Part shown: in pieces, positions 6,970 to 26,742 of the stretch | How positions within the stretch are numbered: position 1 is the first letter of the stretch | Layout: the number at the start of each line of letters is the position of its first letter | Assembly (NCBI GenBank): GCA_963704125.1 | Contig: CAVPHA010000011.1 | Location: 3,801-67,800 of the forward strand | Direction of reading: 5' to 3' | DNA length: 64,000 nucleotides | Source of the DNA: an uncultured Acidobacteriota bacterium | GTDB lineage: Bacteria > Acidobacteriota > Thermoanaerobaculia > Thermoanaerobaculales > Sulfomarinibacteraceae | The notes under the pieces: generated by a model | What the model was told of the DNA's origin: nothing | Database searches by the model: none | The model's input: only the letters and a program-made list of their open reading frames with translations | Program-made: the position numbers and the translations under genes

Positions 6970-6978
6970 AGCGAACTC

Positions 6979-9393: not shown

Positions 9394-9422
9394 TCAGACT
9401 CCAGTCTGTTCCCCGGTTCATT

Positions 9423-9438
9423 AGCAACGGTTGTGCCA
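9423..9438 (-). promoter_or_regulatory. sigma54 (-24/-12) promoter for the permease pair
   Basis: The minus strand reads TGGCACAACCGTTGCT against the consensus TGGCACG-N4-TTGCW, with correct GG/GC spacing. Its 3' end is about 30 nt upstream of the TTG start at 9393. Confidence 0.6.
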
Positions 9439-10014
9439 GCTCATTCGCCCTCGGCTGCTTGACTTCGACCGGCCTTCTGTCCGGTTGTGCAATCGGGCTG
9501 TTCGGAAGCGGACACCGCGGTCGGGCCGGCTGTAGGTTCGATACGTCGCCGAACGGGTCAGGTTTGGCCGCGTCGTCCTGCTATCAACGGCGTGACGGGT
9601 CCGGCGTTGGGCTACCTGATGACAGCCGAAACTCGGGTGAAGATTTAATTCATGACGTATTCGGGAGGCGGTTGCTTCCGATGGGCGGGGATGAACTCCG
9701 TCCTCACGATTCTAAGAGGTCAGCCTCCTGCAAGATTCGAAATCAGGTGGGCGAGGAATTCTCTCTTGACTTCTTATAGAGGCACCCGTAACGAGGATGA
9801 CGTTTTTCGCAACAACCTCATTGCGGGCGCCCATACGGCAGCGGAACTCAACACGCTCGTGATCGACAGGGGAGCGGGCGACACAACCGAGAAATCGTCG
9901 CTGCAGACTAATATTGGAGAGATCGAATCGGTCCCCGTGGCGGCCATCGGGATCGCTCCGCGAGGGGTGATTCGCGACCAGTCAACGGGGGGGGCTTAGT
10001 CGATCACGGAGAGC

Positions 10015-10512
10015 ATGTTGAGCTGGGTGGGGAACGGTGGCTGCGCCGAGCTCAACGGGATCGAACTGGATCCGGAGAGCGAAAGGTCAGGATTTGTCTC
10101 TGCGGCGCCGGGCGTCCACGGCATCTCGGTCTGGGGCGAGGGGGGGTGCGCGGGGTCGCCTGATCTCACGGCGGAGGAGACTGTCGTCTCGGGACCGGAT
10201 CCTGCCGGGACTCTGGATGCGGACCCGAATCTGATCTCTTCCGGTGGAAGCTCGGTCCTTTCGTGGAGCCTTCTCTCGGGCAGCCTGATCACAGGGCTGA
10301 TCTCACATGGGGTGATGGACGAGGTTACGGTTCCATCGGGTTCGGTTCAGATCATGCCCCCCAACACCGTCCAGTACAACCTGACTCTGGTGACGAAACA
10401 GGGAGGGGTCGTTCGTACGGCCTCGGTCTGGGTCGATGAAGAACCGTCGAGTCTTTTTGCCGACGGTTTTGAGTCCGGTGACTTTTCACTGTGGTCGTTC
10501 TTTTCGCCCTGA
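10015..10512 (+). CDS. hypothetical protein ending in a DGFESG..WS...P C-terminal motif
   Basis: 165-aa ORF ending LFADGFESGDFSLWSFFSP-stop. No signal peptide at this start. The same frame is open from 9652 and is interrupted only by TAG at 9997-9999, so it may be the 3' part of a disrupted longer gene. Confidence 0.4.
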   Translation: MLSWVGNGGCAELNGIELDPESERSGFVSAAPGVHGISVWGEGGCAGSPDLTAEETVVSGPDPAGTLDADPNLISSGGSSVLSWSLLSGSLITGLISHGVMDEVTVPSGSVQIMPPNTVQYNLTLVTKQGGVVRTASVWVDEEPSSLFADGFESGDFSLWSFFSP

Positions 10513-10596
10513 TTTCGCGTTTGTCCGCATGATTCCGCTATGGTGGTGGGTCCCTGGCTCAACGCAATCGCGTCGAAACCTCGTCAATTGTCAGGG

Positions 10597-11526
10597 CTAG
10601 GAAATCAACAACACAATGCCCAAAAACGCGACGATTGTGCCGACGAGGGCGCGCAGCGAGACGTGCTCCTTGTGGATGAAGACGGCGAAAGGAATGAGCA
10701 TGACCGGGGTCAGGGCCATGATGGTGGAGGCGACCCCGGCGGAAGTGTAATGCAGGGCGGCGAGCGACAGCACGACGCCGACGAAGGGGCCGAGAAAGGC
10801 GCCCACCGCGGTCAACGCGAAGGCCTTCGCGTCGCGCCGGGACTGCCAGATCTTCGGCCACCAGCCGAGGACGAAGAAGATTACGATGACGCCCAGGGTC
10901 CCGGCCAACACCCGAATGGTGGTCGCAGCGACCGGATCGAGCATCTGTCCGCCATTCTGCATACCTACCTTGCTGAAGATGTACCCGACCGCCTGGCCGA
11001 TCATCCCGAAAAAGGCCATCACCACCCCGTGCAGCGTGATCGTTTTGACGGTCCGGTTCTTCGGGATCGCCAATCTGGAGGGGCCGGCGCCGTTTCGTTC
11101 GAGAATCACCATGGCGATCCCGCTCAGAGTCACGGCGATGCCGAGACACTGAATCGGTCCGTAGATCTCCCCCAGGAAGGCCCAACCGATCAGGGCTGTG
11201 ACCGGGGCGGAGAGCGACATCACCAGCATGGCGACGCGCGGTCCGATCTCGACAAATGCCTTGAAAAGGAACATGTCCCCCAGGGTGAAACCGATCACAC
11301 CGGAGAGGGCCAACCAGCCCCAGTTGCGGAGCGGGAAATCCCACGGGACCAGCTGCCCCTTGGTGATGAGCAACGTCAGGCAGAGAAAGACGGCCGCCAG
11401 GACAAGCCGAACCAGGTTGACGGTGAGCGCTCCGACCCGTTTGCCGGCCGCCTCGAAGAACTGTGAACCGACCGTCCAGCAAAGTACGGTGAGGAAGGCG
11501 ATGATCTCGCCTTTGTAGGGTGTCAA
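10597..11526 (-). CDS. EamA/DMT-family transporter (309 aa)
   Basis: Ten predicted hydrophobic helices in two EamA-like halves (…IIAFLTVLCWTVGSQFFEAAGKRVGALTVNLVRL… and …LTAVGAFLGPFVGVVLSLAALHYTSAGVASTIMALTPVMLIPF…). Confidence 0.8.
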   Translation of the reverse strand: MTPYKGEIIAFLTVLCWTVGSQFFEAAGKRVGALTVNLVRLVLAAVFLCLTLLITKGQLVPWDFPLRNWGWLALSGVIGFTLGDMFLFKAFVEIGPRVAMLVMSLSAPVTALIGWAFLGEIYGPIQCLGIAVTLSGIAMVILERNGAGPSRLAIPKNRTVKTITLHGVVMAFFGMIGQAVGYIFSKVGMQNGGQMLDPVAATTIRVLAGTLGVIVIFFVLGWWPKIWQSRRDAKAFALTAVGAFLGPFVGVVLSLAALHYTSAGVASTIMALTPVMLIPFAVFIHKEHVSLRALVGTIVAFLGIVLLIS

Positions 11527-11534
11527 GGTTTCAG

Positions 11535-11605
11535 ATCTCGATTCTCGTTCCTCGTTCCTGGTGACTCATCCCGTTCGACGAGCCGCGAGAAACGAGCAAC
11601 GAGAT
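11535..11605. repeat. REP-like imperfect inverted repeat (ATCTCGATTCTCGTTCCTCG ... CGAGAAACGAGCAACGAGAT)
   Basis: Read directly between the SDR stop (11607) and the EamA start (11526). The arms are built from tandem CTCGTTC-type units. A hairpin/terminator role is plausible. Confidence 0.45.
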
Positions 11606-11606
11606 A

Positions 11607-12593
11607 CTACTCCTCCAACGCCGCAAGGGCTTCATCAACCATCTTCACGAGGGTGTCGCGGTCGTAGGTGTAGGGCTGGCCCTCGTTGAGCTGGACAAGC
11701 TCCTGGATCGCCTTGCCGATGGTCCAGCCGGCCTCCTCCTGATCGGGCACCACCATGTAGCGCATCTTCGGGTTGTCGCTGAAGAGGGCCTGGTAGACGG
11801 CCTCGGCGACCTCACCGGGGTCCTTTTCATCCGACCGCTCGCCGACCCTCGACACGATGGCTTCGATTTCGTCCTTGTACTGGGAGTCCTCATAGGTGAT
11901 CCCCTTGGACTCCATTCTCTTCTTCAGGCTCTGGCCGATCTGAGACTTGTAGTTTCCCGGTTCGACCAGGCTGACCTTGACGTCGAACTTCGCCATCTCG
12001 CGCGCCAGCGAGTCGCCGTAGGCCTCCATGGCGTGCTTGCTCATGCTGTAGGGCCCGAAGAGGGTGCCCGAGAGGATGCCCGAGATCGAGCTGATGATAG
12101 TGATTCGGCCCCTGGACTCGATGATGAGCGGAGCGAAGGCCTTCGTGACCCGGTAGGGGCCGTAGATGTTGACATCGAAGAGAAAGTCGAGCTCGGATTC
12201 GTCGACTTCGATGAGCGGCGCGAGGATCGCGACGCCGGCGTTGTTGACCAGGCCGTAGAGACCCCGGCCATCCTTGGAAATCCGCTTGACCGCAGCGTCG
12301 ATTTCATCCTGAACCGTGACGTCGAGGCGAATCCCAGAGACGTTCTCCATGGCGTCGAGCCGCTCGAGGTCGGCCTCCTTCCGCGCCCCGGCCCAGACGT
12401 GGACCCCGCGCTCGGCCAAGAACTCGGTGATTTTGAGGCCGATCCCGCTGCTCGCGCCGGTCACCAGCACGGATTTTTGAGGTGCGGTTGCCGTCTCGGT
12501 TTCGCCGGCTGAGCTCGCGGTCGAGAACCCAACTGCACCCACCATGACTGCTACCACTGCCATCGAAGCTATCGATCTGCGGATGAATTTCAT
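11607..12593 (-). CDS. exported short-chain dehydrogenase/reductase (SDR)
   Basis: Signal peptide MKFIRRSIASMAVVAVMVGAVGFSTASSA. Cofactor motif TGASSGIG and catalytic YSMSK (YxxxK). Confidence 0.85.
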   Translation of the reverse strand: MKFIRRSIASMAVVAVMVGAVGFSTASSAGETETATAPQKSVLVTGASSGIGLKITEFLAERGVHVWAGARKEADLERLDAMENVSGIRLDVTVQDEIDAAVKRISKDGRGLYGLVNNAGVAILAPLIEVDESELDFLFDVNIYGPYRVTKAFAPLIIESRGRITIISSISGILSGTLFGPYSMSKHAMEAYGDSLAREMAKFDVKVSLVEPGNYKSQIGQSLKKRMESKGITYEDSQYKDEIEAIVSRVGERSDEKDPGEVAEAVYQALFSDNPKMRYMVVPDQEEAGWTIGKAIQELVQLNEGQPYTYDRDTLVKMVDEALAALEE

Positions 12594-12772
12594 GGACCTT
12601 CTTCGTCTTTTTATTAGATACTGAGTCGCAATTGGCTCATATTACCACGGCGGTGTTCATCAGGGCGTTACGGTCGTCGCGCCCGCATTCTTCAGTAACC
12701 AGGCTGTGGTGTGGTATGGTGATTAAAACTGAGACGCATGATCAGAAAACGAACAAGAAGGGGAGGCGTCCG

Positions 12773-13339
12773 ATGACTCGAAACACATTGCTTTCCGTGA
12801 TGATGCTCCTGGTGGTGGTGGCGCCGGTTCTGGCGGATCCACCGGTCACGATTCTCGATCAGGTCCAGGGAGTTATTGACGACACCGTGGGCGGAATGGC
12901 TGTCGGTGGCGGGTCCGATCAGCGACTCGCCCAGACCGTGACGGTGGGTGTGAGCGGTCGGTTGGTCGGGGTGATGCTGCCCATCGCCTGCGAATCCGGT
13001 CGATTGGTCATGGAGATCCGCGATGTTGTTGGAGGCGAACCGGGACCAACGGTCTTTGCCCGCACGAGGATACCCGCCGTGCGCATCCCGGACCTCGGTC
13101 CGACGTTTCAACAGGTGCCGGTGCGGGGCGCGGTGAACTTCAGTGTCGGTGACGAGTTTGCCGTCGTGCTCGACAACCCGACCGGGGGATGTGGGATTTT
13201 CCGGGGACCGGTGGGCGACTCGTACGCCGGCGGTCAGGGGTTCTTCGAGGCGTTGCCAAATCCTCCCGGATGGGTGCCGTTTTCGGAGACCGAGAGTCGT
13301 CTCGATCTGCCGTTCATGACCGTGGTGAGGATCCCGTAG
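12773..13339 (+). CDS. exported hypothetical protein (188 aa)
   Basis: GGGGAGG RBS, ATG at 12773, signal peptide MTRNTLLSVMMLLVVVAPVLA. No recognised family. Confidence 0.6.
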   Translation: MTRNTLLSVMMLLVVVAPVLADPPVTILDQVQGVIDDTVGGMAVGGGSDQRLAQTVTVGVSGRLVGVMLPIACESGRLVMEIRDVVGGEPGPTVFARTRIPAVRIPDLGPTFQQVPVRGAVNFSVGDEFAVVLDNPTGGCGIFRGPVGDSYAGGQGFFEALPNPPGWVPFSETESRLDLPFMTVVRIP

Positions 13340-13415
13340 TCAGGCGGCGGCAGATTTGCGAGGGACCGCCACCAGGATCTTTCACGGCGGCCTGTCTGGG
13401 TCGGTAGGAAACCGA

Positions 13416-13441
13416 CCCCCACCACCCGTTTCCGGTGGGGG
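13416..13441. terminator. hairpin CCCCCACC-N10-GGTGGGGG between convergent genes
   Basis: Read directly. A related hairpin (GGCCCCAACC..GGTGGGGGCC, about 20711-20738) sits in the equivalent position downstream of the paralogous gene 20774-21217. Confidence 0.4.
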
Positions 13442-13479
13442 CCGATGAGCGATCGATCCTCAAGAAGGGAAGATCGCGA

Positions 13480-13924
13480 CTACTCGGTGGCCCGTCCGGA
13501 CCCGGTGCCTTCGGCTCTGGTCCCGCGATCGATAATCATGACCTCGGCCTCGCCGCAGACGGGCTCGCCGCCAACGGTCACGGCGACGAGTCGGAAGGTG
13601 TTGTAATCGTTCAGGATCAACCCATCGATCGTCTTGATCTCGTCCATCAGGAACTTGGCCACGAAGTAGCCGCGGTTGTCCGCCTTCCATGAGCTGATGG
13701 CGACGCCGGCCAGATAGACGGTATAGACGTCCATATCAGAGTAGAGAATATCGGTGTGAACGGTGACGACGGTCCCGTCGCTCTGGAGGTTAAGAGTCTC
13801 CGGTGCGATCCGGATGACGTTGTCACAGGCGAAGCCGATGGTCGGCATGATCATCAACGCCATCGTGAGCGCGGCTGCCACGATGTCGTGCCGGCGATAG
13901 AAGTCGTGCGTTCTTCGTGGTCAT
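13480..13924 (-). CDS. small lipoprotein, paralogue A (N-terminal signal region needs a 1-nt frame correction)
   Basis: Shares long identical runs with 20774-21217: CDN.IRIAPETLNL.SDGTVVTVHTD, GVAISSWKAD, FVAKFLMDEIK, IDGLILNDYN, GEPVCGE. The ATG at 13924 with a GGAGGG RBS is out of frame by one nt with the body, which otherwise opens with GTG at 13881. Confidence 0.65.
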
Positions 13925-14043
13925 GGGTGCCCTCCAAGGTCCTGGTTGCGGCCGATGTCGACCGGGTTGACGTGTCCGACGGCGCGGTGGCAGTTATTTT
14001 CCGCATGGCCTCCGAGATGACCGCGGGTGCCGATCCGAGCAAC

Positions 14044-14060
14044 AGCACGACTCATGCCAA
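14044..14060 (-). promoter_or_regulatory. sigma54-type -24/-12 element upstream of lipoprotein paralogue A
   Basis: The minus strand reads TTGGCATGAGTCGTGCT (TGGCAT-N5-GTGCT, with consensus GG..GC spacing). It is conserved at the same relative position upstream of paralogue B (21318-21334). Confidence 0.5.
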
Positions 14061-14261
14061 TCCGGGCGACGTACGTCGATCATGATTGCTGAAAGAGGAC
14101 TTACAGGAAACGCGCGGCTGTCGCGGTGGCGAACGACTGAGTCGTATCGCCCCGCAAGGTGTGGCTATTCGACGGTCTCTGCTCGCGAGAACCTCCCGGT
14201 TGAGCCTCGTGCAGAGTCCAAGGATCGGACACCGAGGTCTCCCGATCCTGGTCACCGCCAG

Positions 14262-14323
14262 GCCGGCGAGACGCCGGGCCTACAGGGGATCTCAGCCCTC
14301 TGCAGTGCCGGCGTCTCGCCGGC
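14262..14323. repeat. 16-bp perfect inverted repeat GCCGGCGAGACGCCGG / CCGGCGTCTCGCCGGC with a 30-nt spacer
   Basis: Read directly. It lies downstream of the aminotransferase gene fragment on the minus strand and is REP- or terminator-like. Confidence 0.5.
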
Positions 14324-14386
14324 ACAGAAACCACAAACCACCAAGTAATTGGGGGCGGGTGCAGGAGGCCGGGTTCTCAGCTGGAG

Positions 14387-14565
14387 TCAGCCGATCGACA
14401 CCTCACGCAACGCGGCCGTGAGCAAATCGATCTGGTCCTCGCTGTTGAAGACCGAGAGCGAGATCCGGAGGCCGTTGAGCCCGTGACTGCTCATGGGGCG
14501 GCAGTCGATTTGGTGTTGTTCGGCGAGCGAGGAGGCGACCTCTCGGACATCGTGGCCGGCGACAT
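14387..14565 (-). pseudogene. 3'-terminal fragment of a class-V aminotransferase / cysteine-desulfurase-like gene
   Basis: Translation HVAGHDVREVASSLAEQHQIDCRPMSSHGLNGLRISLSVFNSEDQIDLLTAALREVSIG-stop matches the characteristic C-terminus of this fold (…R.S...yN..e.id.L…). No upstream part is present. Confidence 0.55.
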
Positions 14566-15042
14566 GTCGTCGGTGGGGATGCCCTCAACGAGCTGACCGT
14601 AGGATTCGGTTCCCTCCTGGTTGATCGAATAGACCCGGGCCCAGACCTGGATCGGGGTGCCCGAGGTGTAGTGGATGGCGCCGACCCACGAACCGCCGCC
14701 GATGTCGAGGAAGTGGTCGACCACGTCCTCGATGTGGAACATCTTCTGCTCCTGCGGGATGTCGACGGTGTACTCGGTCGCGCCGGTGTTGTCGGTGTTG
14801 CTCCGGCAGAACCGCAGGGTCACCGGACCGGTTCCCGAGGTGTCGATGACGAACCACAGATCGGTCCGCCAAATTGAGCCCTCGAGACCCGGCGCGTGGG
14901 CGGCGGCGAGGATCCAGCCGTCGTAGTGCTGGGTCTGGTTGAGCTGGGCCTCGACCTGATGCGCGATCAACGCCACGACCGCCAACAGGGAGATGAGGGT
15001 CGTCGATTGGAGCCTATTGGGGATGCCTGTGACGCCTGCCAT
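14491..15042 (-). pseudogene. exported protein carrying the island repeat domain, truncated at about 14566
   Basis: Signal-like N-terminus, then AAHAPGLEGSIWRTDLWF…ESYGQLVEGIPTDD, which aligns with the first half of the domain in 15189-16652 and 17878-20436. After 'GIPTDD' the ORF reads out of frame through the aminotransferase fragment. Confidence 0.6.
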
Positions 15043-15188
15043 CTTGAACCTCCTTTTCGCGTTTCCTGGAACCAGGATGTGAATTCGTTACTTCAAGGTA
15101 TGCCGCCAGCGGGCGGTGGAGAATGGCGAAACGCGACAGAATCATGGACGGACGCGACGAGAACCCGGGGTCCTTCAGCCGGTGGGGT

Positions 15189-16652
15189 CTATTGGCCGGC
15201 CGGGGACTGCGGCGCGATGGCGATGAAGGTCGGGTCGCCGGTGGCGTTGTCCACCACCGAGAGATAGGCGCCGACGCGACCGTTCCCAGCCGTCACGGTG
15301 ACCCGGACCATCCCGTTGGCGAGCGAGCCGGTCCCGGCCACCGTTGTCGCCACCTCGTTGACCTGGAGGTTTTCGTAGGGGCGAAGCTGGTAGTCCCGGT
15401 GGCCGAGCTCGATCATCGACGAGTCCATGACTGTGACCCTGACTGCGGCGCTCTCGCCCCACACCTCGCAGAGTCCGAGGTTGGTTCGGAAGGTTGTCCC
15501 CTCCTCGACGCCGCCCATGGTGGCGGAGGCGGTCCCGGTGGCGCTGAGAACCTGGGTCGGCTGGATCGGCGGGATCCCCTGGCCGTACGAACCCGCTTCT
15601 GCGCCAGGCGTCGATGTCCGGCTGGTCACGGCGAGCTGGTGCCCCCGGATCTCGAGGGCGCCGGCGCCGGTGGCGGAAAACAGCTCGGCCATGACGTCGG
15701 ACCACGCGAGCTGCGACGAGGCGGGCACGGTCACCGTGGTGCTGGTGAAGTTCGTCAACCCGTCGACGCCCCGCGGGGTGTAGAGAACCTCGATCTGCCG
15801 TTCGTTGTCCACGAGGTTGACCACGCTCACCGCGCTCGTCCAGTAGGTCCCCTGGGCGCCGGGTGTGCCGGCGACAGCGGGAATGACCACGCCGTCGATC
15901 CGATGGATGCCGCGGCCGCCGCCCTCCGAGCTCCGCAACAGAAGCCCCCAGACGCTCGAGTCGGTGTACCGGTACACCGGGTCGTGGCAGAGATCCGCGC
16001 CGCTCGCACCGGTACAGAGGACATAGGGCTGCTGGTAGTCCTCGCCGGCGCTGCCCCATTCGATCAAGCCTGACGGCTCCTCCGAGTGGAAGTCGATCAA
16101 GCCCACCGATGCTCCGCCGGGACAGTCGAGGAGGGCGGCCCTGAACTGATAATCAACCGCCCGCGGCACCGCCTCGATGGTGAAGGTGATGGGGTAGTCG
16201 ACCACCGGCATGCCGGTGCAGTCCTGCCCCGAGCCGGCAAGCCGCAGGTCGGAGTCCACCGGGCTGAGCACCCGGTAGTTGTAACGGATTGCGAGATCCT
16301 GTTCGATTGAACCCTGTGGGGCGGTGATCTCGATGTTCACGTAGGCCTGGAGATCGCCGGCGTCCCCGACGAAGGAGGGTGAGCCTTTCCGGTCGAGGTA
16401 GATGTCGATCCCGTAACGACCCTCCACGAGCCCGCTGATGGTGTACGTCGATGTGGCCAGGTCGACCGTGCCCTCGATCTGGTCCCCGGGATCCCACGGG
16501 TTCGCGTACGCCAGCGCCACGGTGATGTCGGGGAAAACCGTCGCCACGGGCAGGTCGTCGTACAGCAGCGATCCCGAGACCTCCGCCCCGGCTCCGACCA
16601 TCGGTAGTGCAAGAAGTACACAAGGGACCAGGGCCAGGATCTTCCTTGACAT
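15189..16652 (-). CDS. exported protein of unknown function (487 aa) with the C-terminal island repeat domain
   Basis: Signal peptide MSRKILALVPCVLLALPMVGAGA. C-terminal domain blocks: IPAVAGTPGAQGTYWTSAVSVVN, LAVTSRTS, GSYGQGIP, FRTNLGL, GAYLSVVDNATGDPTFIA. Confidence 0.75.
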   Translation of the reverse strand: MSRKILALVPCVLLALPMVGAGAEVSGSLLYDDLPVATVFPDITVALAYANPWDPGDQIEGTVDLATSTYTISGLVEGRYGIDIYLDRKGSPSFVGDAGDLQAYVNIEITAPQGSIEQDLAIRYNYRVLSPVDSDLRLAGSGQDCTGMPVVDYPITFTIEAVPRAVDYQFRAALLDCPGGASVGLIDFHSEEPSGLIEWGSAGEDYQQPYVLCTGASGADLCHDPVYRYTDSSVWGLLLRSSEGGGRGIHRIDGVVIPAVAGTPGAQGTYWTSAVSVVNLVDNERQIEVLYTPRGVDGLTNFTSTTVTVPASSQLAWSDVMAELFSATGAGALEIRGHQLAVTSRTSTPGAEAGSYGQGIPPIQPTQVLSATGTASATMGGVEEGTTFRTNLGLCEVWGESAAVRVTVMDSSMIELGHRDYQLRPYENLQVNEVATTVAGTGSLANGMVRVTVTAGNGRVGAYLSVVDNATGDPTFIAIAPQSPAGQ

Positions 16653-16804
16653 TTCAGCCTCCGTCGATTGGTTGGTTTGATTGTACTCCCCACTCCACCG
16701 GCCGGACGGGTTGCCTCGACGGGACGTTCATGTGCTGTCATGCGTTTAGATCTCAGGACGTTTCGACGTCCCACTTTTCAAAGCCTGGCACCGCTACCGC
16801 GACT

Positions 16805-17140
16805 CTATGGCTGGCTCGAGCTCCAGCGCGAGAGGTTTCCGGACTCGAATCCATCGCTGAAGATCTGGCCGGTGGGCGACAGCAGCAGGTCGAGGGCCGG
16901 CAGAATGTTCGTGTAGACGCTGGCGGGTGTGTGCACTGCAACCCCCGGGGTCGTGGGGCCCGCCGGCGTCGGCGCCGGGTTCGCCGCCGGCGTGGCGGTG
17001 CTCACCTCGACCGGGGCTCCGGCGGTAACCGTGTCGCCGCCGGCTGCGGGAGTCGGCGTCAAGCACGCCAGGACGGCACCGAGCAAGCCTGCGGTGACCA
17101 TCCTCCAGCGCGTCACCTGATGGTGATTTGGATTGCTCAT
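16805..17140 (-). CDS. small exported Pro/Thr/Ala-rich protein ending in the DGFESG..WS...P motif
   Basis: Signal or lipoprotein-like N-terminus (…MVTAGLLGAVLACL), a low-complexity linker, and the C-terminus IFSDGFESGNLSRWSSSQP-stop. Confidence 0.55.
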   Translation of the reverse strand: MSNPNHHQVTRWRMVTAGLLGAVLACLTPTPAAGGDTVTAGAPVEVSTATPAANPAPTPAGPTTPGVAVHTPASVYTNILPALDLLLSPTGQIFSDGFESGNLSRWSSSQP

Positions 17141-17156
17141 GGCAGGTATTCCTCGC

Positions 17157-17585
17157 CTACTGTAACTGCTCGATGCCCCAGGCGAGGCGGCAATCGCTGA
17201 TCACACACCCGATGGTGGTTCCGCTGGTGTCGGATCCGGTGTAGTAGATCCGAACCGGTTTCGCGGTGACCACAGCGGTCAGGAACACGCTCATCGCGCG
17301 CGCTGCTTCGGATTCGTTGGCCGTGGAGACCGCCCAGTAGTAAATGGTGTAGGGCGGCACCGAGACCCCGTTGGTGCACCTCAGGTGGACCCGCTGGTTG
17401 AAAGTCGCAGCCGAGGCGGGAGTGCAGTCGAAAACCGACTCAGGCGCTTCGCCGGGTTGGCCCTGCCCGTCGGAAACAACGCCGTCGGGCGTCATCGGTT
17501 CGTCCGCGGCGGCGGTGGCTGCGGGTACGCCAGCAATCGCGATCAACACCAGGGTCGTCAGCAGCACAAATCTCGTCATGGTCAT
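17157..17585 (-). CDS. small exported 4-Cys protein (142 aa), unknown function
   Basis: GGAGG RBS and signal peptide MTMTRFVLLTTLVLIAIAGVPAATAAA. Cys positions: FDCTP, LRCTNG, IGCVISDC. Confidence 0.6.
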   Translation of the reverse strand: MTMTRFVLLTTLVLIAIAGVPAATAAADEPMTPDGVVSDGQGQPGEAPESVFDCTPASAATFNQRVHLRCTNGVSVPPYTIYYWAVSTANESEAARAMSVFLTAVVTAKPVRIYYTGSDTSGTTIGCVISDCRLAWGIEQLQ

Positions 17586-17877
17586 TTCGAACCTCCTTCG
17601 GAAATCGAGCCGTGTCGATGCTGCCGATCGGATCTACCTCGGCAGCGCCCTTCACACTGCAAACAAACTCGTTCATGAGTCGTGGGACCCGGCACGATAT
17701 TACTCCTGTTGAGGGTGGTCCGTCTCCTGTTTCTTCGAAGTTTCGAGCACGGGCGTTGATCGACGCGAATGGCTCTCCCTGAAGCTGTGGACGGGAGGCC
17801 TCGGGCCCTTTTTTGGGACCATTGACGAGCGAGCTCCAGGACTATACGTTCATTGAAAATCCCGAATTCCCTGGGAG

Positions 17878-20436
17878 GTGGTCGTGTCATCATCACGAGT
17901 ATCTTCAACCGGTCTAGGGCGATGTTCGATGGTGTGGCCGAGTGCGGTGGCCGCAGCCACGTTTGCCTGCATTGCCTTCGGCGCCGGAGCTCAGGGCTCG
18001 GAGACCACGAGCGAGGGTCCACCCGCGACGAAGACCGCGGTCGGGTCCGAAATGCCGCTGTTCATTCCGGCGGTCGCTCACGTTTCCGGTGCGGCGGGAA
18101 CAAACTGGCGAAGCGATGTCGAGATTTACAACCTTGGGCCCGGTCAGGCCTTTATCGATGTCGCGGTTCTGGAGAAGGACCAACCCAACCCGTCGCCCAC
18201 CACGCGGGCATTCGTCATCAGCCCAGGCATGTCGTACCGGTACCGGGACACGCTGTACAGGATGTTTGGCGAATCCGGCTCCGCCGCGCTGCGGATCGAC
18301 GCCGCGGATGACGCTCTGGTCGTGACCAGCCGGACCTTCAACGAAACGGACTCGGGGACTTACGGCCAGTTCATCGGGGCCCTCGCCGAGAGCCGCGCGA
18401 TTCACACTGGCGAGCAGGGTCGGATCGTGCAGCTGTCGCAGCACGGCTCGTCCGACGCCGGGTACCGGACCAACGTCGGGTTCCTGAACTGCTCGGACCG
18501 CGAGATCTCTGTGGCGGTGGATCTCTTCCGGGGATCCGGCGATCAGTTGGGGACCAGGCTCTACACCCTCGGACCCGCCATGTTCAAGCAGATCGACAGG
18601 ATCTTCACGACGGTGACCGGCGATGACGTCGAGGACGGTTTCGCGGTGGTCTCGACTTCCACCGCAGGAGGAGCGTTCTTCGCCTACGGATCCGTGGTGG
18701 ATAACCGAACCGGTGACCCGGTTTATCTTCCGGCGGCCATCGTCGCCTCGGAGCCCGTTTTCATCCCGGCGACGGCGCACGTGTCCGGAGCGGTGGGAAC
18801 CGACTGGCGCACCGACCTCGAGCTGCACAACTCCGGGAGCGTGGACGCGCAGTTCGAGGTGTCGATGCTCGAGACCGGCCAGGACAACTCGACGCCCGTT
18901 TCCTCGATTGAGCACGTGAGTGCCGGTGCCGGCGTCCGCCTCGACGACGTTCTGCACTCGACCTTTGGTTTCGATGGCACGGCGGCGCTTCGAATCACGC
19001 CAATGGCAGGGGCACACGGATTGGTTACCAGCCGCACCTACAACCAGACTCCGGGTGGAACCTACGGTCAGTTCGTGGGGGCGGTTTCCGCGTCGGACGC
19101 CATCGCGTACAGCGAGCAGGGACTCATCGTTGGGCTCACCCACAACCGGGCCGCCGCAAGCGGCTATCGCACCAACCTGGGCTATCTCAACTGCACGGGC
19201 TCGGAAGCAGTTGTTAGGATCGACCTGTACCGATCATGCGGAGTCCTGCTCGGGACGATCGAGGACACCCTCGGGCCGTACATGCACCGGCAGCAGAACA
19301 GGATCTTTCAACAGGTGACGAACGACGACGTGGCGGACGGCTTCGCCGTTGTCGCCGGCACTACGCCGGGATCGAGGCTGATAGCCTATGCATCGGTCGT
19401 CGACAACGCAACCGGCGATCCGATTTACGTTCCGGCAACCACGATCGTGGCCCGATCGTCGGATCCGCTGATGGACCCGCGCGCGACGATGCACCTCCTG
19501 TTTCGATCGCTGGAGGTCGTCGCTGCCGATCTCGACGTCGAAGACATGATCACTATGCTGCAGATGTTCGGCCTGCAGGCCGCGCTCAACCAGTTGGCGG
19601 CGTTCTATCCGGACATCGTGTCGCTGGGTCAGCACTCGTTCACCCTGGACTACGGCAGCGAAACCAGGCTTCACGACGGAAACCTGGTGAGTGGGCGGGT
19701 GGAGGCAGATTTCGCCGACATCGTCATCAACTCCACGACCATCTCCGGGCAACTCACCTTCACGTTCGACGAGCTTCAATGGAACCACCAGGCGCCACCG
19801 GTCGATACGATCGTCGCGACGGTGGACCTGGCGGTCGATCCACAGGGACACGTGACCGGAACCACCTCGTTCTCCGGAACCGGATCGGTCCCCGTCAAGT
19901 CGGATCCGGTCACGCTGGGGGGCGAAGCGCTCTGGGACACTTTGCTGTGCGACCGCTTCCCGGTGGGAGGAACGATCACGCTCGAGGTCGGGGACGAGCT
20001 CTTCACCTTCACCTTCACTCCGGTTTGCGACGGGACCTTCAGCTACCTGGGGCCGGGCGACGTCGATCTGTCCGGCTACCAAAGGGTAACCGTCCGGGTT
20101 CTCAATCTCGGGCTCCGGCTGCGCTCCGAGAGCCCGGCCTGCAGCGACATCGGGCCGTACACCGAGAGCTTCATCTGGAACGCCTTCAACGGCTCGTGGG
20201 AGGGTTCGACCTATCACGACGCCTGGCAGGAAGATTTTGGGGGTGTTGTGGTCAGCGTCGATCTCGTGGTCGCGGCGCGCCCTGCGGCCGGAACGGCCGG
20301 CTTCACCGCGTGGCAGCAGACCGTCGACTCCCAGGACCCGAACCACGCCATCACGACCACCCTGACGATCACCGGCCACAACCTGCCGCTGGTGTTCACG
20401 GGGGGCGGTCTACGAGAGCCTGCTGCCGGGGGCTGA
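17878..20436 (+). CDS. large exported protein (about 850 aa) with two tandem island repeat domains and a unique C-terminal half
   Basis: GGGAGG RBS with a GTG start at 17878 or 17884 and a signal-like N-terminus. Repeat 1 (about 18052-18748): FIPAVAHVSGAAGTNWRSDVEIYN…GTYGQFIGA…GYRTNVGFLN…FFAYGSVVDNRTGDPVYLPA. Repeat 2 (about 18754-19455): FIPATAHVSGAVGTDWRTDLELHN…GTYGQFVGA…GYRTNLGYLN…LIAYASVVDNATGDPIYVPA. Confidence 0.8.
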   Translation: MVVSSSRVSSTGLGRCSMVWPSAVAAATFACIAFGAGAQGSETTSEGPPATKTAVGSEMPLFIPAVAHVSGAAGTNWRSDVEIYNLGPGQAFIDVAVLEKDQPNPSPTTRAFVISPGMSYRYRDTLYRMFGESGSAALRIDAADDALVVTSRTFNETDSGTYGQFIGALAESRAIHTGEQGRIVQLSQHGSSDAGYRTNVGFLNCSDREISVAVDLFRGSGDQLGTRLYTLGPAMFKQIDRIFTTVTGDDVEDGFAVVSTSTAGGAFFAYGSVVDNRTGDPVYLPAAIVASEPVFIPATAHVSGAVGTDWRTDLELHNSGSVDAQFEVSMLETGQDNSTPVSSIEHVSAGAGVRLDDVLHSTFGFDGTAALRITPMAGAHGLVTSRTYNQTPGGTYGQFVGAVSASDAIAYSEQGLIVGLTHNRAAASGYRTNLGYLNCTGSEAVVRIDLYRSCGVLLGTIEDTLGPYMHRQQNRIFQQVTNDDVADGFAVVAGTTPGSRLIAYASVVDNATGDPIYVPATTIVARSSDPLMDPRATMHLLFRSLEVVAADLDVEDMITMLQMFGLQAALNQLAAFYPDIVSLGQHSFTLDYGSETRLHDGNLVSGRVEADFADIVINSTTISGQLTFTFDELQWNHQAPPVDTIVATVDLAVDPQGHVTGTTSFSGTGSVPVKSDPVTLGGEALWDTLLCDRFPVGGTITLEVGDELFTFTFTPVCDGTFSYLGPGDVDLSGYQRVTVRVLNLGLRLRSESPACSDIGPYTESFIWNAFNGSWEGSTYHDAWQEDFGGVVVSVDLVVAARPAAGTAGFTAWQQTVDSQDPNHAITTTLTITGHNLPLVFTGGGLREPAAGG

Positions 20437-20773
20437 GGCCTGCGACTATCTCGCGGTGAGCGTCCGTCGGACCATGGTCGGCAGTCCTTGTGTGTGGGTC
20501 CTCGACAGCGTGACCTGCGGCGAATGGAGCGGGATCGCGGTGCTGATCCGGTAGCAGGCGATGCGACCCGCTGGCAGCCCGAAGGACGTGTCGGTCGGTC
20601 ATGACTTGGCTTCGTTACCGCGAATGACAATGGGTGGCAGGACAATCGGTGGCACCTATTCGGCACCTGTTCGTTTGGAGCAGGGGGAAGGGGCCGGTGA
20701 AACAAAGTACCGGCCCCAACCGTGTCCGGTGGGGGCCGATGGAAATTCTGCGATCGGGCGGGGTGGCTGGTGG

Positions 20774-21217
20774 CTACCGAGTGGATTGTTCGTGCTCGAC
20801 TCCACTTGCGCTCGATCCTCGATCGATCACCATGACCTCGGTTTCACCACAAACGGGTTCGCCGGAAACCGTCACGCCGACGAGTTGGAAAACGTTGTAG
20901 TCGTTGAGAATCAGCCCGTCGATGGCCTTGATCTCGTCCATGAGGAACTTGGCCACGAAAAAGCCGCGGTCATCCGCCTTCCATGATGAGATCGCAACGC
21001 CGCCCAGATACACCGAGTAGACATCCATTTGCGAGTAGGGAACATCGGTATGGACGGTAACGACCGTTCCGTCGCTCCTCAGATTGAGAGTCTCCGGTGC
21101 GATCCGGATCTCGTTGTCGCAGGCCGAGCCGGAAGCCGGTGCGGCCAGGATGGCGATGGCCAGCCCGAGCGCTATCAGGATGTCGCGGCCGATTGTCCGT
21201 GTCGTGAGAGTTGTCAT
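20774..21217 (-). CDS. small lipoprotein, paralogue B (147 aa)
   Basis: Lipoprotein signal …LGLAIAILAAPASGSAC, with the body highly similar to paralogue A. GGAGGG RBS. Confidence 0.75.
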   Translation of the reverse strand: MTTLTTRTIGRDILIALGLAIAILAAPASGSACDNEIRIAPETLNLRSDGTVVTVHTDVPYSQMDVYSVYLGGVAISSWKADDRGFFVAKFLMDEIKAIDGLILNDYNVFQLVGVTVSGEPVCGETEVMVIDRGSSASGVEHEQSTR

Positions 21218-21317
21218 GGTTGCCCTCCAGATTCCAGGTTGTGGTCGATCCCGACCGGGTTGAACATCGGTTCACAGTGGCGCTCACCAACGACCACGAG
21301 TCACCGAACGGACCTAA

Positions 21318-21334
21318 AGCACGACTGATGCCAA
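21318..21334 (-). promoter_or_regulatory. sigma54-type -24/-12 element upstream of lipoprotein paralogue B
   Basis: The minus strand reads TTGGCATCAGTCGTGCT, about 100 nt upstream of the ATG at 21217. Its counterpart is 14044-14060. Confidence 0.5.
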
Positions 21335-21497
21335 CTCGGCTGGTTGGAATCAAGTGTTTGCTAACTGGATGTTTAGATGAGGATGAGCGGTGCCGACCGG
21401 CCGGTCGGAGTTTCTGAAGATCGAGTCGGCGGGTCACACCCCATGGGTCGTTTTGACTCGCCCGGTGCCATGGGCGGGGCCGCATGCTTCATGGCGC

Positions 21498-21648
21498 GAG
21501 ATTCGAAACGCAAAGACGCGAAGACGCAAAGATCATCGCAAAGTCATCGCGTTTTTGAATTGGCAACGCATCGCCCACTTTCAGTTGCGATGTTTTGCGC
21601 CCTTTGCGTCTTCGCGGTTCAAACTTACGTGAACCGCGAGACGCGTCC
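21498..21648. repeat. REP/MITE-like repeat family A, hairpin-type copy (two inverted arms)
   Basis: The left arm AACGCAAAGACGCGAAGACGCAAAGATCATCGCAA and right arm TTGCGATGTTTTGCGCCCTTTGCGTCTTCGCGGTT are near reverse complements. They are followed by CAAACTTACGTGAACCGCGAGACGCGTCC. Confidence 0.75.
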
Positions 21649-21652
21649 TGTC

Positions 21653-21877
21653 CTACTGGTGCGGACAGCCGTTGGGTTCAGGCTTCAGGAAGCTCAATTT
21701 CCCAACTTCCAAACGTCTGGCATCGATATAATACCGTAATACCGTGCCTGGCACCTTTTTCCCTTTTTCCTTTTCCTTTTCTTTCCTTTTCTCGGCTGCG
21801 GTCGGCGACGCCAGCAACAGAAAGAGGGCAACCCCGGCGACGACCCGCCCGGTCCGCGTTTCATTTTCGGTGATCAT
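21653..21877 (-). CDS. possible small exported protein with a KEKEKEKGKK tract (74 aa)
   Basis: ATG with no clear RBS and a signal-like RVVAGVALFLLLASPTAA. The ORF contains a polypurine tract and abuts a repeat. Weak. Confidence 0.25.
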   Translation of the reverse strand: MITENETRTGRVVAGVALFLLLASPTAAEKRKEKEKEKGKKVPGTVLRYYIDARRLEVGKLSFLKPEPNGCPHQ

Positions 21878-21982
21878 CCGACCAATAATACAATGTCGTT
21901 ATCGTATCTGCTCGAGTGAGAATAGATCGAAACGCATGACCCAAGGACGGGATGTTTGAACCGCAGGATTCGAAGGGTCTAT

Positions 21983-22045
21983 GTCTTCGCGAACTTTGCG
22001 CCTTCGCGGTTCAATCCTGAGTGAAGCGCGACACGCGTCCCTTGC
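21983..22045. repeat. repeat family A copy
   Basis: GTCTTCGCGAACTTTGCGCCTTCGCGGTTCAATCCTGAGTGAAGCGCGACACGCGTCC parallels the right half of 21498-21648. It overlaps the last 10 or so codons of the RND gene. Confidence 0.7.
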
Positions 22046-25000
22046 GGCTCGTCAGGAACGAGCACATGGCGGGGACGACGAAGAGGGTCAGAAAGGTCCC
22101 GATGACCATCCCGCCGATGACCGCGACCCCCATGGGGATCCGGCTCTCGGCGCCGGCGCCGAGACCCAGAGCGATGGGCAGGATTCCGAGCACCGTCGAC
22201 AGGCTGGTCATGAGCACCGGCCGGAACCGCGAGGTGGCTCCTTCGATGATCGACTCGGTCACCGAGGCGCCCGCCGCCTTGCGCTGGTTGGCGAACTCGA
22301 CGATGAGGATGCCGTTCTTGGTGACCAGCCCGATGAGCATGATCATCCCGATCTGGCTGAAGATGTTGAGGGTCTGGTTGAAGTACCAGAGCGAGAGCAG
22401 GGCGCCGGCGAGGGCGAGCGGGACGGTGAACATGATGATGAACGGGTCGCGGAAGCTCTCGAATTGAGCCGCCAGAACGAGGTAGACCAGCACCAGGGCC
22501 AGCACGAAGACAAAGACCAGACTGGTGGCGCTCTCGGCGAAGTCGCGCGACTCGCCGGCGAGCGTGGTGGAAAAGCTGTCGTCCAGCACATTCTCGGCGA
22601 TGCGGTCCATCGCGTCGATGCCATCGCCGATGGTCCTGCCCGGGACCAAGGCGGCCGAAACCGTGGCCGATGCATAGCGGTCGAAGCGGAAGATCTGCGG
22701 CGGGCTCGAGGTCTCGGTGACGGTGACGAGCTTGTCGAGCAGCACCGGCGACCGCCCCGCTGAGGTGACGTAGAGGTTGCGGAGGTCGACGGTCTCGTCG
22801 CGGGCGTCGGGGAGGACCTGGCCGATGACCTCGTACTGTTTGCCGTCCATGACGAAGTAGCCGAGCCGCTGTTCGCTGAGTGCAAGCTGCAGGGTCTGGG
22901 CGATGCGCAGCGCCGAGATCCCCTGGTCCTGGGCCCGCTCGCGGTCGATGGCGACCCGGAGCTCGGGCTTGTCGAACTTGAGGTCGACATCGACGAAGTC
23001 GAAGGTCGGGTCGGTCTCGGCCGCGGCGAGGAAGGGCGGCAGCACCTCCTGCAGCTTCTCCATGTTGGGCGCCTGGATGACGTACTGGACGGGCAGCCCG
23101 CGGCGGCGGCCGACGGCGATGGTCGGTGTCTTCGGAGAGAAAGGTGCGCGCTTCGGTCAGCAGCTTGATCTTCGGCCCCAGAGCGGCGACGATTTCGGTC
23201 TGGGTTCGCTGTCGGTCCTCACGATCGGTCAGGTTGATGCGGCCGAACCCCGAGTTGACCGACGACGCCGCGCCGAACCCGGGCGCGGTCACCGTGACCA
23301 CGTTGTCGATCTCGGGTACCTCCTTCGAGGATGAGGGCGTTCATCCGATCCATGAAGTGGTCCATGTAGGCGAAGGTCGCGCCCTCGGGACCGCGGGCGT
23401 TGATGCTGATGGAGCCGCGGTCTTCGAGCGGCGCCAGCTCGCGCGGCAGGATCTGGAGGAAGAGGGCGACCAGAGCCATGCAGACGATGACGATGGGCAG
23501 CGCCAGCCAGCGCCGCCGGAGCATGCCAGTCACCAGCTCCCGGTAGCCCGTGGCGAGAGCGGCGAAAAAAGGCTCGGTGGTCCGGTAGAGCCAGGGCTGC
23601 CGCGCCCGTTTCTTGAGCAACCGGGTCGAGAGCATGGGGGTCAACGTCAGGGCGACGAAGGACGAGATGACCACCGCCCCGGCGAGGGTCAGACCGAACT
23701 CGCGGAAGAGCCGGCCGACGAGCCCGCTGAGAAAGAGGATCGGCATGAAGACCGAAACCAGCGCCACCGTCGTCGCCACAACTGCGAAGAAGATCTCGCG
23801 GGTGCCCTCGACCCCGGCCGTCATGGGATCGAGCCCGCCCTCGATCTTGGCGTAGATGACCTCGACGACGACGATGGCGTCGTCGACCACCATCCCGATG
23901 GCCAGCACCAGGGCGAGCAGGGTGAGCACGTTGATGGTGAACCCGGCGAGATACATGACGAAGAAGGACCCGATGAGCGAAACCGGGATCACGAGCAACG
24001 GGATGAGGGTCGTTCGCCAGTCGCGCAGAAAGACGAAGATGATCAGCATCACGAGGCAGAAGGCGATGAAGATCGTCTGTTGGACCTCGGCTACCGATTT
24101 TCGGACATAGCGACTGGCGTCGAAAGCCCAGGCGACCTCGATATCGGCCGGCAGCGTGCGTTTGATCACCTCCACCCGGCGGTAGAACTCATCGGTGATG
24201 GCGATGTAGTTGGCGCCGGGTTGCGGGCTGGCGACGACCAGGACCATGGGAACGCCGTTGCGTTTGAGCACCGTGCGCTGGTTGCGCGGGCCGAGTTCGG
24301 CGATTCCGACATCGCGAAAACGGATGATCCGGTCGCCCTCGGATTTGAGGATCAGATCGTTGAAAGCCTCGGGGGTGTCGAGGCGGCTCATGGTCCGCAC
24401 CGGGAGCTCGACCTCGGTGCCTTCGATGCGACCCGACGGGAGCTCGACGTTTTCCCGTGCGACCGCGTCGCGGACATCCATGGGCGAGAGCCGGTAGGCG
24501 GCGAGCTTGTGCGGGTCGATCCACAACCGCATGGCGTAGGTCTTCTCGCCCCAGATGTCGACGCTGGCGACGTTCGGGATGGTCTGCAACCGCTCGACGA
24601 ACATCTCCTGGGCGATGCGGCTGAGCTCGAGCAGGTTGCGGCCGTCGCTGCGCACCGAGACCCCGACGATGGGCCGGGCATCGGCGTCGGCCTTGGACAC
24701 GATGGGCGGCTCGACATCCGACGGCAGGCTGGACTGGGCCCTGGAGACCTTGTCGCGAACATCGTTGGCGGCGCGCTCGAGATCGGTGCCGAGGGCGAAC
24801 TCGGCCTGGATGGTGCTGCGGCCGTCGCGGCTGGTGGAAGTCAGGGTGCGGATCCCGTCGACGCCGTTGATCGACGCCTCGAGCGGCTCGGTGACCTGAG
24901 ATTCGATGACATCAGCCGAGGCGCCCCGGTAGTCGGTGGAGACGGTGATATTCGGGGGATCGAGCGAGGGGAACTCGCGAACCCCGAGAAACGAGAAGCC

Positions 25001-25081
25001 GAGCAGACCGAAGAGCACGATGGTGATGGACAAAACGATCGCCAGCACCGGGCGCCGGATGCTGAGGGTGTAGAGCGTCAT
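22011..25081 (-). pseudogene. RND-family efflux permease (AcrB/HAE1-like), interrupted by two frame changes
   Basis: Three collinear frames. N-terminal 620 aa: MTLYTLSIRRPVLAIVLSITIVLFGLLGFSFLGVREFPSLDPP…. Bridging piece: VTVTAPGFGAASSVNSGFGRINLTDREDRQRTQTEIVAALGPKIKLLTEARTFLSE. C-terminal 350 aa: …GMIMLIGLVTKNGILIVEFANQ…. The shifts lie near 23310 and 23130. Confidence 0.85.
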
Positions 25082-26658: not shown

Positions 26659-26732
26659 CGTGCTTTGCGTTCTTTGCATTTCAATCATGCGATGGTGCGA
26701 TGCTTCGCGAACTTGGCGCCTTTGCGGTGAAA
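26659..26732. repeat. repeat family A copy (plus orientation)
   Basis: …TGCGATGGTGCGATGCTTCGCGAACTTGGCGCCTTTGCGGTGAAA is nearly identical to the 32439-32480 copy (GCGATGGTGCGATGCTTTGCGTACTTGCGCCCTTGCGGTGAAA). Confidence 0.75.
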
Positions 26733-26742
26733 ATACCGGCCG

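Follow-up and report, generated by a model that had tools for sequence, protein, structure and literature searches.

The window analysed here is a stretch of 64,000 nucleotides from an uncultured Acidobacteriota bacterium of the Sulfomarinibacteraceae (GenBank assembly GCA_963704125.1, contig CAVPHA010000011.1, positions 3,801 to 67,800). It contains an island of genes for exported proteins, bracketed by two paralogous genes in the same orientation that we call copy A (lipA) and copy B (lipB; coordinates of all features are in Table 1). Five cargo genes lie between the brackets, p183, p487, p111 and p142 on the minus strand and p852 on the plus strand. We conclude that this part of a Thermoanaerobaculia chromosome is an islet that varies between strains and encodes hypothetical exported proteins, and that it is ordinary in kind. 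The original prediction, made from the sequence alone, had seen in it a self-contained extracytoplasmic module, bracketed by diverged direct repeats of a lipoprotein gene and generated or mobilised by segmental duplication. Much of its description of the locus holds: the two copies are 72% identical in amino acid sequence across 132 residues (E 2.5e-69) and 75-79% identical as DNA, with a start-to-start distance of 7294 nt; each keeps its downstream hairpin (85% alike); and the shared upstream sequence, put at about 130 nt, was measured at about 150 nt with one indel (13917-13970 against 21210-21263, 81%; 14030-14065 against 21304-21339, 78%). The genes in between encode, as had been noticed, exported proteins of no nameable family: all five cargo open reading frames (ORFs) have hydrophobic N-termini, signal peptides being judged by reading these, and Shine-Dalgarno sites, and when all eight proteins were compared with Pfam and NCBIfam, no match at E ≤ 1 rose above noise.

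An island-free relative and the ends of the block

Contigs of relatives were fetched for comparison and carry L labels, while P numbers denote proteins of the bracket family. The ancestral gene order, read from L010, L011, L012/L013, L014, L018 and L034, is membrane-fusion protein (MFP), RND pump, class-V aminotransferase, bracket gene, SDR and EamA transporter. In these relatives the bracket gene lies directly downstream of the aminotransferase, which is intact at the locus in L010, L011 and L014, and the pump and MFP genes lie a few kilobases further upstream. The window retains the 3' end of an aminotransferase gene, and because this end and its hairpin directly precede copy A, we take copy A to be the resident gene in its ancestral place. 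The hairpin itself, with a unitig depth of 68-108x against about 2x around it in two marine-sediment runs (X1 and X2), could be a terminator or a repetitive extragenic palindrome (REP)-like element, and looks like a multi-copy palindrome common to many genomes.

The closest relative, L014, matches window positions 3480-14583 at 98.9% and positions 22000-22610, the 3' end of the pump gene, at 93.8%. Between the two matches it has about 1.14 kb with a full-length aminotransferase, where the window has 7.4 kb; since so near a relative carries only some 1.1 kb of aminotransferase at this place, the block is read as strain-specific, and its presence here and absence at the same site in a near-identical strain are what characterise a strain-variable islet. 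Measured in 500-nt steps, identity to L014 is 99.2-100% for 3586-13585 and 91.0-91.4% for 13586-14583, with the step inside copy A, so that the 5' two-thirds of this gene fall within the 91%-identity tract. The island haplotype is thus 6-9% diverged from that of L014 from about 13586, in copy A, to at least 22610, in the pump gene. This step would fit homologous recombination that exchanged the entire locus, one crossover falling in copy A; an assembler switching between strains is the less likely cause.

The left end of the block is a novel joint, which together with its absence from an otherwise 99.2-100% identical relative bears out the discrete island of the original prediction. The p183 gene, correctly described as truncated, aligns to residues 38-167 of orthologues of 296-297 aa (61-66% identity to those of L015 and L016), with homology ending at residues 161-162: the first 161 codons are kept, and the last 21 are an out-of-frame reading of the aminotransferase remnant. 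A public contig with an intact aminotransferase tracks the window to 14563 and then continues as L014. To judge by these alignments, the joint is an illegitimate, microhomology-type join that would have truncated both genes.

On the right, the window and L014 are alignable for about 35 nt past the stop codon of the pump gene. Some 390 nt beyond the end of alignability there is a second copy of the 3' end of the pump gene, followed by copy B. An imported block probably ends on the right at this remnant; it reads as having begun at the very 3' end of the pump gene of the donor, an arrangement that matches the pump-to-bracket linkage of the clade. We considered whether the pump-end hairpin is a REP-like dispersed repeat; a pattern search gave no further copy in the window.

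Alternative explanations of the locus

One alternative, which we consider unlikely, is that the cargo, possibly with the bracket gene, functions together as an extracytoplasmic module, for example as a surface complex that adheres or captures polymers, and is inherited together. It has in its favour that p142, p111, p487 and p183 are co-oriented with gaps of 16-152 nt, all with Shine-Dalgarno sites, and that paralogues of the domain shared by p487, p852 and p183 (see below) also cluster elsewhere: a p487-like gene stands beside a p852-like gene in L007/L008, p852 stands beside a p183-like gene in L015/L016, and at least two domain genes occur in 5 of 8 independent anchored loci. However, at no other locus do domain genes occur alongside lip, p142 or p111, the neighbours of p487 orthologues differ in almost every genome, p852 orthologues (67-69% identical) sit in unrelated contexts, no cargo homologue lies within 10 kb in any of 41 lip loci from species-representative genomes, and one member of the supposed module, p183, is broken at the joint. 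Pairs of domain paralogues are the sole recurring arrangement; the full gene set was found at no other of the lip, p487 and p852 loci compared, and the proposed self-contained, conserved module is not supported. The cargo products probably act independently and not as one machine.

A second alternative is that the contig is an artefact of metagenome assembly that joins two related organisms, so that the two-copy bracketing exists in no single genome. The window looks like the contig of a metagenome-assembled genome (MAG), identity to L014 steps down near 13586, the neighbouring pump gene has two frameshifts (a sign of flawed assembly or of gene decay), and in the public runs no reads, unitigs or independent contigs were found that span 14563/14564 or about 13586. 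On the other hand, the parents of the joint at 14563/14564 have only about 7 nt in common, an overlap too short to be bridged by an assembler. Even if the assembly had switched strains at about 13586, a single haplotype would still carry the larger part of copy A together with the aminotransferase remnant, the cargo and copy B. Metagenomes of marine sediment, sediment and soil contain unitigs that are at least 99% identical to the window, with a depth of 2-3x, and in four runs from different samples such unitigs cover both the left flank and the island. It is also improbable that a chimera would fall exactly inside an orthologous locus with synteny on both sides. We therefore give an artefact only a small chance.

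Still less probable, by a little, is the in-situ segmental duplication of bracket gene, promoter region and terminator, followed by divergence and accumulation of cargo between the copies. The two copies do lie on the same strand and share coding sequence, hairpin and upstream sequence, and the family does duplicate locally elsewhere: L017, from a Thermoanaerobaculales MAG, has tandem paralogues at 749-1156 and 1477-1896, 75% and 58% identical to copy B, and nothing intervenes. Each of the two bracket copies is, however, closer to genes of other genomes than to the other copy, which argues for import over duplication and speaks against the segmental duplication of the original prediction. The nearest relative of copy A is P0158 from L014 (97%; neighbour-joining bootstrap 91), and those of copy B are P0087 (86%) and P0096 (84%) from other genomes (bootstrap 90). 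In a neighbour-joining tree of 37 sampled family members, the common ancestor of the two copies spans 31, key groupings having bootstraps of 87-91. Both sub-clades occur at the aminotransferase-linked locus in their own genomes (P0111 in L011, P0096 in L010). Furthermore, neither copy B nor the cargo is present in a relative whose flank is at least 99.2% identical, and the pump 3'-end remnant upstream of copy B is what would be expected of an imported homologous locus. The sequence relationships thus point to a resident and an imported allele of one gene.

A classical mobile genomic island can be set aside: the block has no Pfam match to an integrase, transposase or recombinase, no tRNA or tmRNA insertion site lies in the window, the flanking repeats are whole diverged genes and not att-like, and the composition is host-like. 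Compared with its flanks, the island is native in tetranucleotide usage (distance z +1.4, a value inside the spread of other 7-kb windows), in GC content (62-67%) and in GC content at third codon positions (GC3; 0.72-0.88 against 0.78-0.89 in the flanking genes, and 0.80-0.88 in the five cargo genes). Because of this native-like composition we look for the donor among related Thermoanaerobaculia; homologues of the window genes are found almost solely in MAGs named Thermoanaerobaculales, Sulfomarinibacteraceae, Holophagae or Acidobacteriota. The nearest transposase gene, of the IS91 family, is about 10 kb away and is taken to be unlinked to the islet, since the island-free L014 has it too.

The bracket gene family

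The bracket proteins belong to a family with a domain of about 105 aa, 40-86% identical, that extends from Acidobacteriota to Desulfobacterota, Bacteroidota, Ignavibacteriota and others. The lipoprotein label of the original prediction is not upheld in this family. Only 76 of 121 members have a Cys after the signal peptide (it is absent in about 40%), and this residue covaries with a second Cys: 73 proteins have both, 45 have neither and 3 have the first only. Position -3 is G, A or S, not L, V or I, and the context before the Cys, (I/V)(G/A)SA, resembles a signal-peptidase-I site. The bracket gene product is thus probably not a lipoprotein and, as its two Cys covary, looks from these patterns like a disulfide-stapled periplasmic or secreted protein. 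A search of the PDB with the profile of the family found no match. Among the 41 loci no conserved neighbour was found that would explain the gene, no single neighbour occurring in more than 8; those that loosely recur are a sigma-54 response regulator, a hybrid kinase, an ECF sigma factor, a Ser/Thr kinase and efflux components. Beyond Acidobacteriota (L020, L023, L033, L047, L049, L052 and L055-L057), genes that are often found no more than 4 kb from it encode a sigma-54 response regulator, a Reg_prop/Y_Y_Y hybrid histidine kinase, an ECF sigma factor or an outer-membrane efflux protein.

A frameshift in the signal region of copy A had been noticed earlier and is real: the ancestral ATG at 13924, behind a GGAGGG ribosome-binding site identical to that of copy B, is put out of frame with the mature domain by one extra base near 13895-13900. 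The bracket gene of L014 has the identical defect. Since the mature part of copy A differs from L014 mainly at synonymous sites, the protein may still be made, perhaps from GTG 13881 or ATG 13863 and with a weaker signal peptide.

The cargo proteins

A domain of about 230 aa is common to p487, to p852 (twice) and to p183 (first half only), and all four copies in the 64-kb window lie in the island. The family is large in Thermoanaerobaculia, 743 proteins being recovered with p852 alone. Members carry the domain once or twice, in N-terminal, internal or C-terminal position, and these positions speak against its being a C-terminal sorting domain. Elsewhere it is fused to CARDB, PKD, Big_2, fn3, cohesin, CBM_4_9 and BACON modules, as well as to BNR/sortilin, FGE-sulfatase, MAM-like and RskA_C modules. 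The AlphaFold2 model of the domain alone (pLDDT 94.7, pTM 0.89) is all-beta with two similar halves, which hhalign aligns over 102 columns (probability 94%, E 1e-7) so that W-R-T-D...N in one half is equivalent to F-R-T-N...N in the other, and T-S-R-T-Y-N to Y-A-S-V-V-D-N. We read the domain as an internal duplication of a beta-sandwich of about 110 aa. Invariant motifs are W-R-T-D, S-R-T-x-N, G-x-x-G-Q, R-T-N and Y-x-S-x-x-D-N-x-T-G-D-P. At a pairwise identity of 25-30%, the polar residues R96, Q109, N142, S216, D219, D224 and P225 (domain numbering) are invariant or nearly so, which hints at a functional site.

The whole domain has no neighbour in the PDB by Foldseek (TM ≤ 0.26), and arrestin/VPS26, birnavirus VP2 and XepA were rejected as relatives at a TM-score of 0.26 or less. 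The sole fold match that seems credible, on the predicted model, is that of one half to TM1070 of Thermotoga maritima (PDB 1NC7; TM-score 0.66-0.67 over about 119 columns, probability 1.00), a structural-genomics beta-sandwich without assigned function. Sequence identity to TM1070 is only 13%, and our domain differs from it in being a fused pair of such sandwiches with invariant motifs of its own. A distant relationship to DUF5719 (PF18986) is possible: relatives of p852 score 23.6-32 bits against a cut-off of 26.2 over profile positions of about 58-310, one of ten that were scanned passes the gathering threshold, and several precomputed DUF5719 matches appear in the p852 search. In contrast, p487, p852 and p183 of the window have no match at E ≤ 1, which gives no support to their membership of DUF5719, and the family described here is Acidobacteriota-centred with a clear two-half architecture. 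A literature search for DUF5719, itself uncharacterised, found no paper.

The N-terminal half of p487 consists of two sandwich-like units, with the shared domain at residues 250-487. Its 85 homologues, almost all of 486 aa and 35-73% identical, come from Thermoanaerobaculales and Sulfomarinibacteraceae MAGs. The AlphaFold2 model has a pLDDT of 88, and a complement-like, adhesin or phage-tail identity was rejected, as Foldseek against the PDB and BFVD returned only generic arrays of Ig, FnIII, MG-domain and phage-tail beta-sandwiches at TM < 0.2. Structure prediction and fold search of p487 and of the shared domain brought generic beta-sandwich matches. In p852 the shared domains occupy residues 55-288 and 289-522, and the C-terminal region of 330 aa has no match. 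A scan of JGI metagenomes for p852 found no relative. Searches of the PDB sequences with the p487 profile, p852 and p142 were likewise negative. The homology search returned 100% self-matches for copy B, p852 and p142 and none for p487 (top match 71%), which may be a quirk of gene calling or clustering. A scan of the region for sigma-70 promoters gave nothing, and none of the RNA runs searched contained the region.

The small protein p142 has no match in Pfam and belongs to a family for which an exhaustive phmmer search returned 376 cluster representatives at E ≤ 1e-3 and 72 at E ≤ 1e-10, the best non-self match being 46-49% identical. Its members, of 110-160 aa, combine a signal or anchor segment with a domain of about 90 aa, in which four Cys are invariant and R-V-H-V-R-C and G-C-x4-D-C-R recur as motifs. 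Pattern scans of genome and metagenome contigs for further relatives found none; the alignments of p142 homologues were too variable to serve as scan patterns.

The other small protein, p111, is rich in Pro, Ala and Thr, has a possible lipobox (VLAC) and ends in IFSDGFESGNLSRWSSSQP, with the motif [IF]-F-x-D-G-F-E-x-G-x(3-4)-W-x(3-5)-P-stop in its last 19 residues. The same tag ends many unrelated signal-peptide proteins of Thermoanaerobaculales, including PA-domain, S8 peptidase, FG-GAP and Kelch proteins, and is borne in the window also by the ORF at 10000-10512. In the fetched loci (L001, L004, L009, L011, L014-L017, L020 and L025, besides the window) it lies within the last 30 residues in 14 of 14 occurrences, and it is found in none of 479 lip, p142-family and domain-family proteins. 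In being short, conserved and extremely C-terminal on unrelated exported proteins of one lineage, it resembles sorting tags such as PEP-CTERM, the C-terminal domain of the type IX secretion system (T9SS) and GlyGly-CTERM. Unlike these it has neither a transmembrane helix nor a basic tail, and it matches no curated model (PEP-CTERM, T9SS and LPXTG among them): p111 gave no match beyond noise in NCBIfam and Pfam, curated sorting-signal models included. A literature search for the tag string found no paper. One could go further and see in the islet a sample of two uncharacterised export-related systems, a domain family with a new ligand-binding or catalytic site (the constellation S-R-T, G-Q, R-T-N and D-N-x-T-G-D-P) and a lineage-wide tag for sorting or surface attachment; we regard this as rather unlikely.

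Discussion

We propose that in one lineage a block of about 7 kb was joined between the pump and aminotransferase genes. Read along the minus strand, the block would comprise the pump 3'-end remnant, copy B, p852 (on the opposite strand), p142, p111, p487 and the first half of a gene for a 297-aa protein. It would derive from a related genome with a bracket allele just downstream of the pump. At the left, about 7 nt of microhomology would have fused the half gene to the aminotransferase at about codon 366, with the loss of some 1.1 kb of the latter. Homologous recombination in the flanking genes would later have carried the whole locus from one lineage to another, a step proposed because of the 6-9% divergence from about 13586 to at least 22610 against at least 99.2% identity in the rest of the left flank. 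The apparent direct repeats would then be a by-product of the join and not a duplication that mobilises cargo, and the second bracket allele would be a passenger that may compensate for the impaired start of copy A. We hold this account as a whole (the islet joined between pump and aminotransferase, the imported bracket allele, the later exchange and the exported cargo) to be probable, with considerable room for doubt.

Recombination in flanking core genes creates flexible genomic islets or passes them on, and work on natural transformation has described homology-facilitated illegitimate recombination as one such route. The locus resembles such islets in its presence or absence between near-identical strains, in its native-like composition, in having no integrase, transposase or tRNA in the block and in the raised divergence of the flanking genes. 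A further resemblance is that one side is homologous and the other is an illegitimate joint showing a few nucleotides of microhomology. It differs from other islets in that a second and diverged allele of a resident gene came in with the insert, producing the appearance of a direct repeat; donor and direction of the event are, in our comparison, deductions.

Several points weigh against this account. Besides the unspanned joint and identity step discussed above, where an assembly switch between strains at about 13586 keeps the small probability given there, the donor arrangement was not found among the homologues searched. For copy B, p852 and p487, identity to the closest homologues is no higher than 69-86%, and these homologues come from short contigs or have different surroundings. 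That the block was gained in the lineage of the window and not lost in that of L014 is argued by parsimony only. As to function, fold and sequence searches gave only generic beta-sandwich matches, and the invariant polar residues of the shared domain could mean catalysis and not binding.

Our best guess is that the cargo proteins bind ligands in the cell envelope or after secretion and vary between strains, a role suggested by the fusion of the shared domain elsewhere to extracellular binding or enzyme modules; the cargo would thus add exported binding or surface proteins drawn from strain-variable families. The locus offers a clean example, in uncultured Acidobacteriota of marine sediment and soil, of an exported-protein set that would have been added by an illegitimate join and passed on by homologous recombination, and it illustrates that what seem to be direct repeats may be a single gene present as two alleles. 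The locus also draws attention to three abundant uncharacterised families, namely the double beta-sandwich domain, the small four-Cys exported proteins and the bracket gene family of several phyla, and to a candidate C-terminal tag in Thermoanaerobaculia. Current understanding is unchanged until a function is demonstrated.

Other features of the window

The GC content of the window is 60-69%, and tRNA/tmRNA and Rfam scans of its 64 kb gave no match. Table 1 lists the islet and its neighbours.

Table 1. Features of the islet, its ends and the neighbouring genes (window positions)
Feature	Position	Strand	Details
IS91-family (Y2) transposase gene	3138-4679	+	
Two MacB-type permeases	4525-9393	-	
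Small exported protein	10000-10512	+	
EamA transporter	10597-11526	-	
SDR	11607-12593	-	
Exported protein, function not assigned	12632-13339	+	
Island and bracket genes	13413-21350	both	
Terminator-like hairpin 3' of copy A	13415-13447	-	14-bp stem; -28.1 kcal/mol
Bracket gene copy A (lipA)	13480-13924	-	read as resident orthologue; mature-domain ORF 13480-13881 intact
Upstream region of copy A common to copy B	13925-14065	-	repeat families and alignment
Long GC-rich hairpin 3' of aminotransferase remnant	14262-14323	-	27-bp arms; -61.1 kcal/mol, z -6.5
Aminotransferase 3' remnant	14391-14563	-	last 59 codons; tblastn with L011 protein: residues 366-424, 83%
p183	14491-15042	-	truncated single-domain member of double beta-sandwich family
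Left joint	14563/14564	.	about 7 nt microhomology (GTCGCCG at 14557-14563); end of p183 homology and aminotransferase contig
p487	15189-16652	-	exported all-beta protein
p111	16805-17140	-	small low-complexity exported protein; ends in tag
p142	17157-17585	-	small exported protein; four invariant Cys
p852	17878-20436	+	exported; two tandem shared domains
Terminator-like hairpin 3' of copy B	20709-20741	-	-27.0 kcal/mol, z -4.3
Bracket gene copy B (lipB)	20774-21217	-	intact; other family sub-clade
Upstream region of copy B common to copy A	21218-21339	-	repeat families and alignment
Second copy of pump 3' end	21594-21665	-	last codons, stop and hairpin; 75% identical; -28.6 kcal/mol, z -4.6
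RND (AcrB-type) pump gene	22011-25081	-	ancestral right-hand neighbour
Membrane-fusion protein (MFP)	25078-26166	-	
Penicillin amidase	26681-29125	-	

The pump gene of the window is in three frames, with shifts near 23323 and 23135, and is 88-95% identical throughout to an intact orthologue of 1020 aa; it is either decaying or carries residual indel errors of assembly. L014 shows several single-base frame changes in the pump 3' end and aminotransferase (3-1951 of that contig), and its naming suggests a long-read assembly, so that frameshifts in this contig group call for caution. The intergenic stretch at 21300-22010 is low in GC (56%) and has an ORF of 74 aa (21653-21877, minus strand) with a signal-like N-terminus and a KEKEKEKEKGKK run. 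Motifs of the type GCGAAGACGCAAAG lie there in both orientations (21510-21531, 21602-21615 and 21994-22007), and the window as a whole has 6 matches to this motif against 0.7 expected.

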